A stretch of DNA of 5,285 nt from the IMG/VR virus record IMGVR_UViG_2695420480_000001. One strand, written 5' to 3'. The stretch comes from a virus (taxonomy: Duplodnaviria > Heunggongvirae > Uroviricota > Caudoviricetes). The notes below the pieces were generated by a model. The model saw only the letters and a program-made list of their open reading frames with translations, was not told where the DNA came from and ran no database searches. Position numbers and translations under genes: made by a program. Positions 1 to 5,285 of the stretch are shown here, one piece after another. Each line of letters starts with the position of its first letter. Position 1 is the first letter of the stretch.

Positions 1-2431
1 CTGAAACGTATTTTGCCTGGTAACGGGCGTCATCAAGTGCATTATGGCGCTCACCTTCGAATGGAATAGCCGTTCTGGCATCGAAGTCTATGGCTTTCCC
101 CAGCTCAACGATTGTGCGTACATCGCGATCGTTGTAGTAACGCCACGGGCAGGGGATCCCCTGCCGTTCGTATGAACGGCGCAAAATCGTGTTGTCGAAG
201 TTGGCTCCATTTCCCCAGACCTGAACAAAAAATTCACCGGAGTTTTCGTCGATAAATTCCCGCAATTGTAACAGTGCATCATCTAACGGGATTTCATCGG
301 TCATAATGGCAGATTGCGCTTCGCGTGATTGCTTAAGCCACCATTTAATGGTGTCCCGATCAATGACTCCGCCAGCAGTTTCCAGATCGATAGTCTTACT
401 AAATTCCGGTCCCATATCTCCGGTTTGCGGATCGAAAAATATTGCACCTATTGAGATGATCGGGGCATCAGGATTTTTTCCCATGGTTTCAAGGTCGATC
501 ATTAGATGGTCACACGTCCTGCTGGTGGATGTGATTTCTTGATGACCGTTCACCTTAATTGAGTGATCTGCCGTCTCGCCAGTTCCATTATCGCTATCGT
601 GATGCTGATTGCCGCCAGTGTTCTCCTTGTGTGGATGTTCAGCGCCTTCCATTTTCTCCGGATCATCTTCCTGAACTTCAACCTGATACTCTTCATCGAA
701 TGTTTCCTGGTATGTTGCGTCGCCCATCACTGCGCCACAATCAGGGCAGTTGCCGCCGCCGGTCTGACCGCAGGCGGTGCAGACTTTTTCCACTTCCTGT
801 TGCGCCACTGGTTCAGGCTGTTTCGTTTCTGGCTCGTTTTGTAACGCATTTGGGCTGTTTTGTTCCGCTTTTTGGTAGTTCCGTTCCGATTCATGCTGGT
901 TCTGGTTTACAGAATCGCGGGTCTGGATCCCCTTAACCCATTTCGGATCATTCGGGTCGCTAATCCCTGCAACAAATTCTCCGCGAGAGGCAGCAAGCAA
1001 CTTATCGGCGTCAGGCTGGCTGATATTGGCTGCCTGCATAATTTTGTTTACTTCGTCAGCGGTAACTTTTACCGGCTCTGGTTGTGCGGTCGTGTCAGAT
1101 GCACCAGTATTTTGTTGTGAACCTGAGTATGTACTGTTTTTGCGGGCGAAATATTCTTCTTTCGTGATTTCAGTAGCCCCGGCAGCCAGTGCCTTATCCA
1201 GACCAGAAAGTTTGTTTGCGCGACCGTATTTTTCGCCATCCTTGTCGGTGAAGAGGAAGTAGAACGGCCCCTCACGCTCTACAGATGGTTCGACTTCCAC
1301 TTTGCATTCGGTTTTTTCGTTGTCCGGAATTGCCGTTTCCACTGCATCAGTTTCTGGTACTGACGACGAGAGAGTATCAGTTGCGCTCTGATTTGTTCCT
1401 TCATCTTCAAACACGCCCTTTGTAGTCAGGTATTCAGTAATGTATTTGTTCAGTGCCACAGGGTCTTTGTGAATGTCGATCGGACGTTCACGGACAAGGC
1501 CAAAAATAGTCTGGCGGTCGTAGCGAAGGGCATCAGGCTGTTTGCGCATTGATGCCGAGATACGCTTCCAGTCTTCGCGGTCGTTGTCGATAACTTCATT
1601 TTTTGCCCAGCGATGGATGCTGCCGTCAATGTTTCCGGCATCCACATCACCAGGCCAGAGAGCGTAGGCCAGTTCGTCATCCAGTGTTTTCCATGTCTGC
1701 TTGTATTCGCGATGAATGGCAGCAATGACCAGGCTGATTTTTCCTGTTGAATTTTCAGTGTGCTGTTGATTGACTCTGGCGCGGGCGAGATCAACAACAG
1801 ACGTGTATTTTCCGGTTTCCTTGCGTTCACCTTCGCGACGTTTTTTCCAGATGCGCATCTCTGCCTGAATTTCGGGCCATTTGGCACCAGGCTTACATTT
1901 ATGCTTAACCCACCCGATGGCATGCAGCTTAAGCTCCGGATACATGGCGTTAACTTCTGGCATTTTCATCAACGCTTCAACGATATGTCCGTTGAATGTT
2001 GCCATGTCTTCCTGCAACAATTCCTGTGCGCTAATAACCATATCAACGGTGATGTTTTCACATGTGTCGAACTTAACCATGAGAGCGTTCTGTACTTCAG
2101 GGGCCAGCTTGTCAAAAGTGACGTTCATCAGATCGGATTCAGTCTCAACCGGGACAAAAGAAGCAGAATCCTCATCCCAGCGGTTTTCCTGCATATATTC
2201 AGCATCCCATGAATCGAGGGCAGGGCGGGGTATGCCAGGTTTATCCTCGCAGATAATAAATTTATAAGCGCAGTCCTGAGCAGCCGGATAATGTTCCAGG
2301 AATTGCCAGTGAAATTTTGCTCGAGCACGGCGTTCGTCGCCAGCTTCAATAGCTGTGGCTACAGCCACAGCGCCTTCTTCCCTTGTTGCCAGTTCGTCAG
2401 GAATGGCGGCGCAAATAAAGACTTTACTCAT
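1..2431 (-). CDS. Exonuclease VIII-like (RecE/YdfE-family) prophage recombination protein with a C-terminal DnaQ-like DEDDh 3'-5' exonuclease domain; 5' end complete, 3' end beyond window start (about 810 codons present)
   Basis: ATG at 2431-2429 (minus) with GAGG 10 nt upstream (revcomp of 2442-2445) and an in-frame TAA just upstream (2440-2438). The frame stays open to position 1; the track omits it because it is edge-truncated, and the listed minus ORFs (88..282, 1069..1275, 1450..1923, 2128..2349) are all in a different frame. Hand translation starts [20 protein letters not shown]. It contains [25 protein letters not shown] and a Cys cluster [16 protein letters not shown] (about 736-783), both of which I recall from Rac RecE (unverified memory). 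The C-terminal part carries DEDDh motifs: DLET (485-496), NGANFD, and HNALDDA (26-46). Codon usage is E. coli-like. Confidence 0.8.
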
Positions 2432-2524
2432 TTTGTTTTAACCTCATGACAGATTTAAGGATGAACAAATCCCTGCCATTGCTGGCATATAAGAATGAAA
2501 CCGGATATTTATTACGGAACTGTT

Positions 2525-2716
2525 TTAAAGACCTGCCGGGATTTCGATATTATCCTGGTGAATAACTTTATCGACCGGGTAACAGTTACCGGGAATTTTC
2601 TGTTCGGTTGCTGCAGTCATACACTCCTGCATTGTCCTGTGAACACTGACTGCAATATCAACTGGCTCTCCGGAAACAAGAAAAACTGTCAGAACAAGTG
2701 CAAATGCTGTATTCAT
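2525..2716 (-). CDS. ydfD: YdfD-like small lysis/membrane protein (63 aa) with N-terminal hydrophobic helix
   Basis: ATG at 2716-2714 overlaps the TGA stop of the upstream gene (ATGA overlap); AGGA lies 8 nt upstream. 63 codons to TAA at 2527-2525. Product: MNTAFALVLTVFLVSGEPVDIAVSVHRTMQECMTAATEQKIPGNCYPVDKVIHQDNIEIPAGL. Size and position (immediately after dicB, before the exonuclease gene) match ydfD of the Qin prophage as I remember it. The track's longer 81-aa version (start 2770) has no RBS. Confidence 0.6.
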   Translation of the reverse strand: MNTAFALVLTVFLVSGEPVDIAVSVHRTMQECMTAATEQKIPGNCYPVDKVIHQDNIEIPAGL

Positions 2717-2901
2717 TGCCAGCATCCTTTTTGTATCGGACGTAAACGGGCCAGCATTGAAAGAATGCATATTTTATTTAATAACTCCCGTTCGTGTTTT
2801 CTCTTGTTAATGGCATCTTCAGTAAATACAGGGTTACTGATAGTGACACCAATTTCAAAACAACCTTCAGACGTATTAACGTTTGGTAATAACGTTTCCA
2901 T
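2713..2901 (-). CDS. dicB: DicB, prophage-encoded cell-division inhibitor (62 aa)
   Basis: ATG at 2901-2899 with GAGGA 7 nt upstream (revcomp of 2909-2913); 62 codons to TGA at 2715-2713. Product: METLLPNVNTSEGCFEIGVTISNPVFTEDAINKRKHERELLNKICILSMLARLRPIQKGCWQ, which I recognise as DicB (62 aa, N-terminus METLLPNVNTSEGCFEIGV). The track's 97-aa ORF 2713..3006 is the same frame extended to an upstream GTG without an RBS. Confidence 0.85.
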   Translation of the reverse strand: METLLPNVNTSEGCFEIGVTISNPVFTEDAINKRKHERELLNKICILSMLARLRPIQKGCWQ

Positions 2902-2937
2902 TATCGCGTCCTCAACAATGAATTTTGTGATGCGGTG

Positions 2938-2977
2938 CCTGGTGCCTCCAGGTGACGTTAACCAGTTAACAATTAAC
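2938..2977 (-). repeat. Structured element in the dicF-dicB spacer: CCTGG-N5-CCAGG inverted repeat (2938-2952) next to three TTAAC direct repeats (2958-2962, 2966-2970, 2973-2977)
   Basis: Direct reading: cctggtgcctccagg, then gttaaccagttaacaattaac. It lies 40-75 nt upstream of the dicB start codon, in the transcribed spacer. Function unknown (RNA leader structure or protein-binding site). Confidence 0.3.
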
Positions 2978-3070
2978 GCCGGATACAGAGAATCCACCCA
3001 TAACACTGTTTTTGGTTTTAACTGTTCCGCGTGCGCTGAGCCGCATTCACCGCATCACAAAATTCACTTT

Positions 3071-3113
3071 AAAAAGGGCGGCAGAGCAGCCACGGAGTAA
3101 AACTGATACCGCC
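3071..3113 (-). terminator. DicF 3' stem-loop / intrinsic terminator (GGCGG..CAGU / GCUG..CCGCC then U5)
   Basis: On the minus strand, GGCGG (revcomp of 3109-3113) pairs with CCGCC (revcomp of 3077-3081), with an inner CAGU/GCUG helix, followed by UUUUU (revcomp of 3071-3075). dicB lies downstream, so read-through must occur. Confidence 0.5.
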
Positions 3114-3128
3114 AAACGTCACCAGAAA
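3074..3128 (-). ncRNA. dicF: DicF small regulatory RNA (ftsZ-targeting sRNA of the dicB operon)
   Basis: Revcomp of 3071..3128 reads UUUCUGGUGACGUUUGGCGGUAUCAGUUUUACUCCGUGGCUGCUCUGCCGCCCUUUUU. This matches the roughly 53-nt DicF sequence as I remember it, apart from one position (GUGGCUG here, GUGACUG recalled). It ends in a GC-rich interrupted stem plus a U-run, and lies directly upstream of dicB on the same strand as in Qin. The exact ends are not determinable from sequence. Confidence 0.8.
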
Positions 3129-3153
3129 ATTGATAACAGAGGGCGTTGCAGCG

Positions 3154-3190
3154 GGGTTGTCACTTAAGCGTATGGTCAACCTGACAACCC
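3154..3190 (-). repeat. Perfect 9-bp inverted repeat GGGTTGTCA-N19-TGACAACCC, 26-62 nt upstream of the DicF 5' end
   Basis: 3154-3162 gggttgtca and 3182-3190 tgacaaccc are exact reverse complements. In a minus-strand transcript this would form a 9-bp stem with a 19-nt loop just 5' of DicF. Confidence 0.35.
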
Positions 3191-3627
3191 GATGTCCTCA
3201 ACGGGGAAGGAATAACCCCGCCATACTTACCGCCGCGCCATTTCGCGGAGTGCCACAACCGGAAGCGCACGGTCGACGAAAATTTAACGACAGGTTATCT
3301 ATGAACCAGCTACCTCGCCGTGCGCTTTCGCGTTATGGTCTGACTTTTCATGGAAATATCCTTTCAGTAAACTGTCAGTGCCGGATGCTCACCCGTGTCC
3401 GGCGCACGCACTCCACCTCACCCGTGGAGAACTCCTTAATTACCAACCTTAGCTTCGTTGGTTAGCTATTAACGCGGGTAAAAGAGGATGACCCACGTAA
3501 TCAGGTTAATTTTCTTTATGAGCCATCGGAAAGACCATATTGTCATCACGCCTCTGTCCGGGTTGACGAAAAAGAGCGTCAGGTCCGCTGTAAAATCTGC
3601 GGTGCAGTTGTGGAGCCATTTGACTGG

Positions 3628-3786
3628 ATGCTCTCTGTGGCGAAAAGAGAAACCAGACTGGCAGATGATGTAAGGCTCTTGCGCCAGGAGGAACGGGAAA
3701 GGCGGAGAAATATAGAAAAGCTAATTCAGATTGAGCGTAACGCGAAAGCGCGGATACGCAGGGCGGCAAAATCAAGAACTGAATAA
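3628..3786 (+). CDS. Hypothetical small basic/charged helical protein (52 aa from ATG 3628, or 58 aa from GTG 3610); start uncertain, possibly a 5'-truncated remnant
   Basis: The frame is open from 3466 to TAA at 3784-3786. The C-terminal part MLSVAKRETRLADDVRLLRQEERERRRNIEKLIQIERNAKARIRRAAKSRTE looks protein-like (charged, coiled-coil-like). Upstream in the same frame is a Cys/His cluster (PYCHHASV...RCKICG) but no canonical start. The only RBS-like site for ATG 3628 is GGAG 12 nt upstream (weak). It is below the track's length cutoff, and the overlapping track ORF 3488..3673 is in another frame. Confidence 0.3.
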   Translation: MLSVAKRETRLADDVRLLRQEERERRRNIEKLIQIERNAKARIRRAAKSRTE

Positions 3787-3820
3787 TTAAATTTAGCACT
3801 GTTAAAAATTTAATCCTTAA
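3786..3820 (+). promoter_or_regulatory. AT-rich candidate promoter region for the 3866..4311 cassette (weak -35/-10-like hexamers, e.g. tttaat at 3809-3814)
   Basis: An AT-rich stretch (aataattaaatttagcactgttaaaaatttaatcc) sits directly upstream of a strongly RBS-equipped gene. No convincing sigma70 consensus was found, so this is a low-confidence placement. Confidence 0.2.
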
Positions 3821-3865
3821 CCGGAGGGATTTCTGCACCCTCAGAACATCAGGAGGCCGTTCGAA

Positions 3866-4147
3866 ATGGCGGTACTGCGTAATCAGCCTGCGCTGTACGC
3901 GTTTACGTCAGAAATTAATGCGATTAGCGCAACCATTATCGGTCAGCTGGATACGAACTTTAAAACTGGTCGTCGTGCGGCGTTACGTGAGATCGAGGAT
4001 GTGAAACACGATACGCGTGAAGCGGAAGATGTGCTGGATGTGGCGGTGGCCATTGCGGAGGCAGACGGCGAAATTGAGCCGGAAGAGCGCAAGGTGCTGG
4101 AAGAGATTGCCGGTGTTCTGGGTCTTCGTCTGGAGAATTACCTGTGA
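3866..4147 (+). CDS. TerB-like (tellurite-resistance TerB / DjlA-N-type fold) small acidic protein, 93 aa
   Basis: ATG 3866 with AGGAGG at 3851-3856 (9-nt spacer); 93 codons to TGA 4145-4147; strong E. coli codon bias (ctg, gcg, cgt). Product: MAVLRNQPALYAFTSEINAISATIIGQLDTNFKTGRRAALREIEDVKHDTREAEDVLDVAVAIAEADGEIEPEERKVLEEIAGVLGLRLENYL. The C-terminal motif AEADGEIEPEERKVLEEIAGVLGL resembles the TerB-family signature (ADG..E..L..LGL) as I remember it; no search was run. Confidence 0.8.
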   Translation: MAVLRNQPALYAFTSEINAISATIIGQLDTNFKTGRRAALREIEDVKHDTREAEDVLDVAVAIAEADGEIEPEERKVLEEIAGVLGLRLENYL

Positions 4148-4311
4148 CGGTAAAACTGCGCCTGACTGTGGCTGCACTCCTGCTGTTTCTGGTGGTGATG
4201 GTGGATTTCACCAGCAGAATCATGTCGGTGCTGGCGGATGGGGTGCTGGTCTGCGGCATTATGGTATTGCTGTGGCCGGTGATAAAAAGAAACAGCCTGC
4301 ATAATGCTTGA
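4144..4311 (+). CDS. Small two-helix membrane protein (55 aa), translationally coupled to the TerB-like gene
   Basis: GTG 4144-4146 overlaps the upstream TGA (GTGA overlap) with GGAG 8 nt upstream (4132-4135). 55 codons to TGA 4309-4311. Product: MTVKLRLTVAALLLFLVVMVDFTSRIMSVLADGVLVCGIMVLLWPVIKRNSLHNA, with two hydrophobic segments and a basic C-terminus. The alternative ATG start at codon 19 would give 37 aa. The track's 4017..4304 ORF is an off-frame shadow. Confidence 0.6.
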   Translation: MTVKLRLTVAALLLFLVVMVDFTSRIMSVLADGVLVCGIMVLLWPVIKRNSLHNA

Positions 4312-4512
4312 TTTTTTTGTTTGCTGTTTATTAAAAACACTTCTGCATGGTGAATCCCCCTGTGCGGTGGGGCAATCAGCAAGAAGGAATATGGGGTAAT
4401 CGCGGATTCAGGTGCTGATACTGAATTCACCGGGAGGCACCCGGCACCATGCTTTGCCACAAAAGTGTTATTTCTGTTTTTCTCAAACTATCATCGTTAT
4501 CCCTTTATTTTC

Positions 4513-4539
4513 GGCTGCGCATGGCGCGGCCTTTTTTTT
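4513..4539 (+). terminator. Rho-independent terminator (8-bp stem GGCUGCGC/GCGCGGCC with one U-G pair, then T8)
   Basis: ggctgcgc atg gcgcggcc followed by tttttttt (4532-4539). The T-run is only on the plus strand, so it is unidirectional. Confidence 0.65.
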
Positions 4540-4634
4540 ACGACCAGCCACTGGCAGATGGTCATCCTGTGATTTGATTCCGCTTCCGGCTTTTTAACTC
4601 TGTTCCTCTAGCCAGGTAACACAGTGTTATGACA

Positions 4635-4660
4635 GCCCGCCGATTCAGGCGGGCTTTTTT
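4635..4660 (+). terminator. Rho-independent terminator (7-bp GC stem GCCCGCC/GGCGGGC, 6-nt loop, T6)
   Basis: gcccgcc gattca ggcgggc tttttt, ending 11 nt before the stf ATG at 4672. Confidence 0.7.
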
Positions 4661-4671
4661 GTGGGGTGAAT

Positions 4672-5285
4672 ATGGCAGTAAAGATTTCAGGTGTGCTGAA
4701 AGACGGCACAGGAAAACCGGTAGAGAACTGCACCATTCAACTGAAAGCCAGACGGACCAGCAGCACGGTGGTGGTGAACACGGTGGCCTCTGAAAATCCG
4801 GATGAAGCCGGTCGTTACAGCATGGACGTTGAGTACGGTCAGTACAGCGTCATTCTGTTGGTGGAAGGATTCCCGCCGTCACATGCCGGGACCATCACCG
4901 TGTATGAAGATTCTCAACCCGGTACGCTGAATGATTTTCTCGGTGCCATGTCGGAGGATGACGTCCGGCCGGAGGCACTGCGTCGTTTTGAACTGATGGT
5001 GGAAGAAGCGGCGCGTCACGCTGAGGAGGCGAAGAAGAATGCCGGAGAGGCGGAGACGTCCGCGAGGAATGCCGGCATATCAGCCAGTCAGGCGGAAGCG
5101 AGCGCGGCAAATGCTGACACTTCAGCAGGGGAGGCATCGGAGTCAGCCCGGCAGGCGGCAGAAAGTGCAGCCGCTGCAAAGAAGTCAGAGGAAGCGTCCT
5201 CGTCCTCGGCCTCTGAGGCCGCTCAAAAAGCCAGTGAGTCATTACAAAGTGCAGCAGATGCTGAGTTGTCAAAAAAGACGGCAGA
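4672..5285 (+). CDS. stf: Side tail fibre protein Stf, N-terminal part (204 codons; continues beyond window end)
   Basis: ATG 4672; product MAVKISGVLKDGTGKPVENCTIQLKARRTSSTVVVNTVASENPDEAGRYSMDVEYGQYSVILLVEGFPPSHAGTITVYEDSQPGTLNDFL..., which is the conserved N-terminus of lambda/Rac/Qin Stf-family side tail fibres (recognised from memory). It is followed by an Ala/Ser/Glu-rich low-complexity shaft region. No stop occurs before the window end; the antisense track ORF 4895..5272 is a shadow. Confidence 0.9.
   Translation, partial: MAVKISGVLKDGTGKPVENCTIQLKARRTSSTVVVNTVASENPDEAGRYSMDVEYGQYSVILLVEGFPPSHAGTITVYEDSQPGTLNDFLGAMSEDDVRPEALRRFELMVEEAARHAEEAKKNAGEAETSARNAGISASQAEASAANADTSAGEASESARQAAESAAAAKKSEEASSSSASEAAQKASESLQSAADAELSKKTA

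Follow-up and report, generated by a model that had tools for sequence, protein, structure and literature searches.

The closest described relatives of the gene pair at positions 3787–4311 of the DNA window analyzed here (5,285 nt, the entire contig CXZE01000052.1 of assembly GCA_001277415.1) are tciA and tciB of phage P1, a TerB-family gene of ~141–143 amino acids (aa) followed directly by a gene for a ~54–55-aa membrane protein with two hydrophobic segments. In the P1 record, tciA-tciB-tciC lies within the C1-controlled ban operon with tRNA genes flanking it and a dicF-like region upstream of the tRNAs and tciA. All three genes were non-essential, including for plaque formation, in a genome-wide CRISPR interference (CRISPRi) screen (PMC10695390), and the literature that we found on tciA/tciB comprised P1 annotation tables, the CRISPRi essentiality table and one transcriptome mention, with no functional experiment found on the phage pair. 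A corresponding pair is named in RefSeq for lambdoid prophages (‘tellurite resistance TerB family protein’ and ‘DUF3927 family protein’), where the first gene has ~143 codons and often carries a TAG lesion. An original prediction, made from the DNA letters of the window, had described 3787–4311 as a self-contained moron-like cassette that could not be assigned to a described phage function. We find that it can be assigned to the P1 tciA/tciB gene set, though that name is itself homology-based, and that 3787–4311 is very probably a deletion-scarred remnant of this known lambdoid accessory pair. The pair is already catalogued, since both genes are named in RefSeq, Pfam, PHROGs and the P1 annotation, and the window instance is a decayed copy.

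To place the window, we compared it by BLAST with 5,426 complete Escherichia coli genomes and with phage genomes. The BLAST blocks, set side by side with the parental sequences, divided it into four blocks joined at three microhomology junctions. Positions 1–3480 correspond to the early-left operon of lambdoid phages (~96% identity to phage Tritos and others), 3477–3877 to the nin region (99.3% identity to positions 5001–5401 of locus L002), 3871–4610 to a block that is 100% identical to locus L001 and to hundreds of prophage copies in Shiga toxin-producing and enteropathogenic E. coli (‘TerB family protein’ / ‘DUF3927 family protein’), and 4609–5285 to the lom-stf intergenic region and stf. 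One of the breaks falls within the proposed cassette, at 3871–3877, where one BLAST block stops at 3877 and the next begins at 3871. The first junction (J1, 3477–3480) joins the early-left block to the nin block at a GGTA microhomology (...gcgGGTAtgtaatc in Tritos, ...tccGGTAaaagagg in L002 and ...gcgGGTAaaagagg in the window). The second (J2, 3871–3874) joins the nin block to codon 53 of the TerB-family gene, again at GGTA (atggcGGTAgtgaa in L002, gaacaGGTActgcg in L001 and atggcGGTActgcg in the window). The third (J3, 4609–4610) joins the TerB block to the lom-stf intergenic region at TA (...ttcctcTAcacggg in L001, ...tctgatTAgccagg in locus L102 and ...ttcctcTAgccagg in the window), the L102 sequence lying just past the lom stop. 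J2 was spanned in none of the 5,426 complete E. coli genomes, and the arrangement of the window was likewise absent from them. Both J2 and J3 are common to the other contigs with an identical fusion protein; J1 is present in two of these (L004 and L006) and absent from two more (L005 and L007), which retain the full 118-aa nin gene. Because J1 occurs in only some of the fusion contigs, the deletions were successive.

Three deletions by illegitimate recombination collapsed a lambdoid prophage to recE-ydfD-dicB-DicF, a nin fragment, a TerB fragment with tciB and the small RNA (sRNA) STnc100, and stf. Judged from the parental sequences, they together took out the immunity and replication region, Q, the tRNAs, and the whole stretch that begins with the esterase and lysis genes and ends with lom. 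The lom-like position ahead of stf in the original prediction is, in the window, the place from which lom was deleted. The pair sits in a cargo slot of the late operon in native loci, but the position before stf and next to dicB is an artefact of the three deletions. As to the junctions themselves, the GGTA microhomology recurs at two of the three, and the GGTA events were independent, as some contigs have J2 without J1; the repeated use of GGTA may be a coincidence (about 1 in 256) or reflect a local recombination preference. Other database chimeras (P0103 and P0114) involve the same genes, namely a 79-aa protein with the TciB N-terminus and the TerB C-terminus and a 130-aa protein with the Stf N-terminus and the TerB C-terminus, and the TerB/TciB block appears to have been rearranged repeatedly in E. 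coli prophage remnants.

The 93-aa open reading frame (ORF) at 3866..4147 (+ strand) begins with a borrowed start. Its AT-rich leader (3787..3870, +), with AGGAGG at 3851–3856, 9 nt ahead of the ATG at 3866, and ATG GCG at 3866–3871, is equivalent to L002 5311–5394, where leader, AGGAGG and ATG-GCG are intergenic and AGGAGG-N9-ATG starts a 10-codon mini-ORF that overlaps the start of the DUF7167 gene. On the other side of J2, the L001 sequence from GTA-CTG-CGT on is codon 53 of the TerB-family gene (L001 5849–6277). J2 joined the AGGAGG-N9-ATG-GCG of the nin region in frame to this codon of a ~143-aa gene, giving a chimeric ORF that reads Met-Ala from the nin block and then residues 53–143 of the tciA-like protein. 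The unit is not self-contained as had been proposed: its TerB gene lacks the first 52 codons, and its leader, ribosome-binding site and ATG come from another locus. In the L002 context (5375–5422, equivalent to window 3851–3874 up to J2), the DUF7167 gene has no good Shine-Dalgarno sequence of its own, and the mini-ORF ahead of it may be a translational-coupling leader.

The TerB-like character of the 93-aa protein, which the original prediction had proposed to check by profile search, was borne out by a match to Pfam TerB (PF05099) above threshold (E=1.4e-7, 32.2 bits against a cut-off of 24.4), and the prospect raised there that no TerB profile hit would be found is set aside. The match, however, covers only positions 64–109 of the 118-position model, compared with 2–109 (60.7 bits) in full-length relatives, and in PHROG 632 the window protein covers positions 53–143 of 143. 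Full-length relatives have 141–145 aa and occur in Escherichia, Klebsiella, Salmonella, Serratia, Pantoea, Enterobacter and several phages. The AlphaFold2 model of the full-length protein (predicted local distance difference test score 85.5, predicted template modelling (TM) score 0.80) contains six helices, at residues 4–36, 44–55, 58–80, 82–94, 100–115 and 122–135. From the alignment and the model, the window product lacks residues 1–52, which hold the MFGxFKKK N-terminus, helices 1 and 2 (4–36 and 44–55) and the first of the two helix-ADGE-helix repeats. A complete TerB domain with both helix-ADGxxxxxE-helix repeats is therefore not found in the window protein.

The parent gene had probably already been damaged before the deletion. 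The window allele (NQPALYAF...ENYL) is identical to alleles that carry an in-frame TAG at about codon 45, such as that of L001, and on this identity the parent tciA-like gene was probably a pseudogene. Among 80 IMG/VR loci picked by their similarity to TciB (L108–L187), the TerB gene carries a lesion in 41, with tciB still open in them; 40 of the 80 have the in-frame TAG near codon 45 (nine of these also with an altered 5’ end), and L166 has a pair of stops near the 5’ end. The nine loci first scored as ‘truncated from residue 18’ were rejected as real truncations, as their 5’ end differs and contains a stop, and they carry the TAG as well. The lesions suggest that tciA is often decaying in E. 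coli prophages, or that one damaged allele is spreading by inter-prophage recombination.

The second gene of the pair is intact. The tciB-like ORF (4144..4311, +, GTG start, 55 aa) overlaps the 93-aa ORF by GTGA and has its own GGAG at 4132–4135, 8 nt upstream. Its product matches Pfam DUF3927 (E=1.7e-16, 60.4 bits), PHROG 1470 (‘TciB-like’, E=1.8e-29) and P1 TciB, and its hydropathy profile has two hydrophobic segments, at about residues 7–20 and 33–47, with basic residues at both ends. The expectation of a coupled mini-protein with two membrane segments was thus confirmed, as were the presence of both ORFs, the AGGAGG 9 nt from the ATG, the GTGA overlap and two terminator-like hairpins downstream. 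Residues D21, F22, T23, S28 and D32 are invariant in the TciB family. The hairpins, at 4513–4531 and 4634–4655, each have a T-run (together 4513..4541 and 4634..4665, both +), but they cannot be credited to the cassette as two strong terminators of its own, since the first closes the TerB/STnc100 block, the second is native to the lom-stf intergenic region, and their number is no more than shuffled sequence gives (1.3 ± 1.2). A consensus-only scan of 2800–4750 revealed no sigma-70-like promoter on the + strand from 2994 to 4750, and thus none within ~870 nt upstream of the cassette. We infer that the remnant lacks the prophage’s own regulatory regions (the dicA/dicC immunity region, the replication genes, Q and pR’), and the pair is thus left without an evident promoter.

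Between the cassette and the first hairpin lies an element that the original prediction had missed, an STnc100-family prophage sRNA (4316..4488, +; Rfam RF02076, 100.8 bits against a gathering score of 47, full model). It begins 5 nt past the tciB stop, and copies lie at L001 6446–6618 and L026 6601–6773; STnc100 could be an sRNA derived from the 3’ untranslated region of the tciAB transcript. The tciB gene and STnc100 are intact here and, going by the flanking sequence, could be expressed only by read-through. In the Rfam scan, STnc100 followed the pair only in E. coli lambdoid loci and not in other genera or in P1, jumbo or N4-like phages, and we rejected it as an obligatory third part of the module on account of this restriction. 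A preprint (10.64898/2026.05.13.724894) places TerB (PF05099) among the conserved neighbors of prophage Pas sRNAs and discusses STnc100 in the region.

Against P1, identity is 43% between the full-length parent and TciA (E=4e-34) and 51% between the 55-aa window protein and TciB (E=2e-12), with a common VDFTS...S..DG motif, and the window has the P1-type arrangement of a TerB gene overlapping or abutting a ~55-aa DUF3927/TciB gene. It differs from P1 in that the first 52 codons of the tciA-like gene are missing, so that no full-length TciA (~141–145 aa, MFGxFKKK) is encoded, and a tciC homologue was found by tblastn neither in the window nor in the lambdoid loci (best E=0.088 over 13 residues). 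The lambdoid pair differs in turn from that of P1 in lying in the late Q-dependent region and in being followed, in E. coli, by STnc100; relative to this lambdoid pair, the window copy has a truncated TerB, fused to a nin-region leader, and adjoins stf. The relation to the ter operon (terZABCDEF) is one of the TerB domain: a profile of the full-length family matched the entire domain of the solved TerB from Klebsiella (2JXU; E=7.5e-14, 126 positions, residues 12–137 against 18–144), and both ADG-type motifs are common to the two. The genes called in the window and in the native loci L001, L002 and L189 include no terC, terD, terZ or other ter genes, and the phage membrane partner is a predicted 55-aa hairpin protein, in contrast to the multi-pass TerC. 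Tellurite resistance is the trait of the ter operon; for the phage pair it would be a name by homology. The stx2AB genes of the Shiga-toxin phage 933W are a positional analogue, occupying the same late-operon slot (Q, pR’, tRNAs, cargo, SASA esterase, holin, lysozyme), and have no sequence or functional relation to the pair.

The co-occurrence of the two genes in other prophages, which had been put forward as a check, is nearly complete. We found the pair in 807 of the 5,426 complete E. coli genomes (~15%), with a median of four copies and often four to eight. Starting from TerB, a DUF3927 match lies within a few bases downstream in 96 of 98 loci, the exceptions (L015 and L017) having a divergent small hydrophobic ORF at that position; starting from TciB, the TerB gene is directly upstream in all 80 viral loci, and the pairing also holds in 12 of 12 diverse genome loci. 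The native order in E. coli lambdoid prophages is DUF968/RusA/Q, tRNAs, TerB, DUF3927, STnc100, a SASA-family (nanS-p-type) esterase, holin and lysozyme. Further carriers of the pair are the virulent N4-like Salmonella phage FSL SP-076, the jumbo Erwinia phage ChrisDB, and integrase-HTH-...-Dam-primase islands of Dryocola and Serratia (HTH, helix-turn-helix). The gene that follows TerB in the Pseudomonas phages AF and Ebordelon encodes a small membrane protein with a single pass and no homology to TciB. In PHROGs, the first family is named ‘tellurite resistance’ (phrog_632) and the second ‘TciB-like inhibition of cell division or resistance to colicin’ (phrog_1470), and the category of both is ‘moron, auxiliary metabolic gene and host takeover’.

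Several details of these loci were noted in passing. The partner protein of the Pseudomonas phages has the motif C..YG.QTERET.Y..FVGCMV (AF, L106 1932–2153; Ebordelon, L107 1943–2146), and its ORF is unannotated in AF. At positions 3266–10483 of L017 and L018, an integrase, HTH repressors, a small AlpA-like-looking ORF, TerB plus TciB and a Dam-like methylase are followed, in L017, by an 830-aa ORF taken as a primase; this gene order resembles that of a phage-inducible chromosomal island (PICI) or a P4-like satellite, the assignments having been made by eye from translations and gene order. In Candidatus Pantoea communis (L015 4843–8085), three more TerB-like paralogues (139, 137 and 130 aa) surround the pair, along with ORFs resembling, as judged only by eye, a MazF/PemK-type toxin and HTH antitoxins. 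Genes for tRNAs adjoin the pair in lambdoid prophages (L001 5427–5666; L026 5584–5832), P1 (L100 2116–2269 and 3701–3776), ChrisDB (L103 886–1354 and 2947–3277) and a Franconibacter prophage (L009 3528–3613); the link is not universal, as none was nearby in 10 of the 11 diverse genome loci scanned.

For the intact pair, we entertain a mechanism by analogy, which taken as a whole (anchor, recruitment, lytic timing and stress buffering) we regard as tentative and rather doubtful. TciB would be a hairpin protein of the inner membrane with both termini probably in the cytoplasm, given the basic residues at both ends, and would anchor or recruit the soluble, acidic and putatively cation-binding TerB-domain protein TciA to the membrane. 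Parallels exist in the association of TerB with TerC in ter operons and in the membrane-tethered TerB-like domains of DjlA and YebE/DUF533, and profile searches with TerB-family proteins gave DUF533 similarity. The presence in the Pseudomonas phages of a non-homologous membrane protein in place of TciB supports the view that what counts is a partner in the membrane. The module would act in lytic development and not in lysogeny, as part of the late Q/pR’ transcript in lambdoid phages and of the C1-repressed ban operon in P1; that it occurs in virulent phages, and in operons that are late or induced by derepression, argues for a role in lytic growth rather than in lysogenic conversion. There it would probably buffer ion, metal or envelope stress of the infected cell.

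In the window itself, the TerB fragment is most likely inert, as it retains only half of the domain, descends from a damaged allele, and has neither the prophage’s own regulatory regions nor a promoter-like site ahead of it. Some observations weigh against the reading of the locus as a decayed tciA/tciB remnant. The fusion is in frame, with a strong ribosome-binding site and the GTGA overlap with tciB preserved, and it recurs on at least nine contigs from several samples; from these sequence features it may be expressed and have some residual or new activity. The promoter scans were limited to consensus sites, and transcription entering from beyond the contig lies outside their reach. A Foldseek search of the PDB with the full-length model gave as its top match the TerB-like fold 2H5N, which is weak (E=0.02, TM-score 0.56); we base the TerB homology of the family on the sequence profile against 2JXU in place of this match. 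These features could also be accommodated if J2 had rescued the gene or given it a new function, by removing the TAG lesion and supplying a strong start, so that the fusion keeps tciB coupled, or so that a half-TerB dimerizes to rebuild the pseudo-symmetric bundle and works with TciB. The parent allele carries the TAG at many loci, the TerB domain is an internal helix-ADGE-helix repeat (two DUF533/2OU3 stretches) and short families of the TerB C-terminus exist in PHROGs (3920 and 9865), all of which would suit such a rescue. An in-frame outcome, however, has a one-in-three chance of arising anyway, all copies are 100% identical and hence bear no sign of selection, and tciB has a GGAG of its own, which makes the coupling unneeded; with the family-invariant N-terminal extension and first motif missing and no promoter found in the consensus scan, we regard a rescued fusion as very unlikely. 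A broader version, in which the widespread pair (lambdoid, P1, PICI/P4-like islands, N4-like and jumbo) acts at the inner membrane in lytic growth, for instance to counter attacks by the host or a competitor on the membrane or on tRNAs, as by colicins or abortive-infection effectors, and the window fusion is a rescued, active half-TerB/TciB variant, is in our judgment highly improbable; to it belong the partner swap in the Pseudomonas phages and the tRNA genes beside the pair in three unrelated phage types.

The original prediction itself, an intact moron in a lom- or sieB-like slot that is expressed in the lysogen from its own promoter and serves in superinfection exclusion, abortive infection or protection from membrane stress, draws on ORFs, a ribosome-binding site, coupling and downstream hairpins that do exist, and on the PHROGs moron/auxiliary category of both families. 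In addition, ter operons with TerB are reported to give phage inhibition and colicin resistance (PMC8123226). But the TerB gene is truncated at its 5’ end and started from sequences of another locus, the position before stf was produced by the deletions, the consensus scan gave no promoter-like site and the complete genomes no instance of the arrangement, and the family also occurs in strictly virulent phages, against a role confined to lysogens; we consider this explanation extremely improbable. Its defense or abortive-infection component found no support in a PADLOC-DB v2.0.0 scan of both proteins and the full-length parent, which gave nothing significant. The best match there was to the candidate model PDC-S48 over 35 residues (E=0.0028 for the full-length protein and 0.015 for the window copy), TciB had none, and we dropped the defense-system reading. 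It is also unlikely that intact tciAB regulates host cell division or the timing of lysis, alongside functions of the dicB/DicF type or the adjacent holin-endolysin cassette. The pair does lie just upstream of the lysis genes in lambdoid prophages, and a small membrane protein with two segments recalls proteins of holin or antiholin size; yet the naming behind the idea (‘inhibition of cell division’ as one alternative of the P1 name) is by homology only, a label that the P1 papers repeat and by which one of them groups tciA/B/C with cell-division-control genes. The adjacency of DicF in the window is moreover a deletion artefact, and the biology of the TerB family offers no precedent for division control.

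The decayed tciA/tciB remnant illustrates that a deletion scar can mimic a well-formed cassette, complete with a strong ribosome-binding site, an in-frame ATG, translational coupling and terminators. The window itself is of little weight, and an intact copy is the better starting point for the tciA/tciB-type pair, which deserves some attention: it occupies the Shiga-toxin slot of lambdoid late operons and recurs in temperate and virulent phages of several families, under names that appear to have been given by homology only.

The remaining features of the window belong to the flanking blocks. By the Pfam families of the called genes, the early-left block contains recE/exoVIII (1..2431, −), which runs off the contig end, ydfD (2525..2716, −) and dicB (2713..2901, −), followed by the DicF RNA (3076..3127, −; Rfam, 75 bits). 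The nin-gene fragment at 3478..3786 (+) is truncated at its 5’ end from about codon 16 of a 118-aa hypothetical gene and corresponds to positions 64–120 of 134 in PHROG 1621. The intact gene in L002 (coding sequence 4954–5310) lies between the DUF977 and DUF7167 genes. The first start codon of the fragment comes only with the GTG at 3610, and the ‘58-aa ORF’ at 3610..3786 is the tail of the 118-aa gene cut at J1. At the other end, the N-terminal part of the side tail fiber gene stf (4672..5285, +; Pfam phage_tail_N) runs off the contig end and is 100% identical to genes annotated as ‘prophage tail fiber N-terminal domain-containing protein’. Directly beside DicF, and extending over the 5’ end of dicB, is another STnc100-like match at 2869–3078 (−), which is weaker (37.7 bits, under the gathering score of 47), and this weak copy and the strong one at 4316–4488 have the hairpin motif ‘cac-c[ct]gg-aggcacc-[ca]gg-cacc’ in common.

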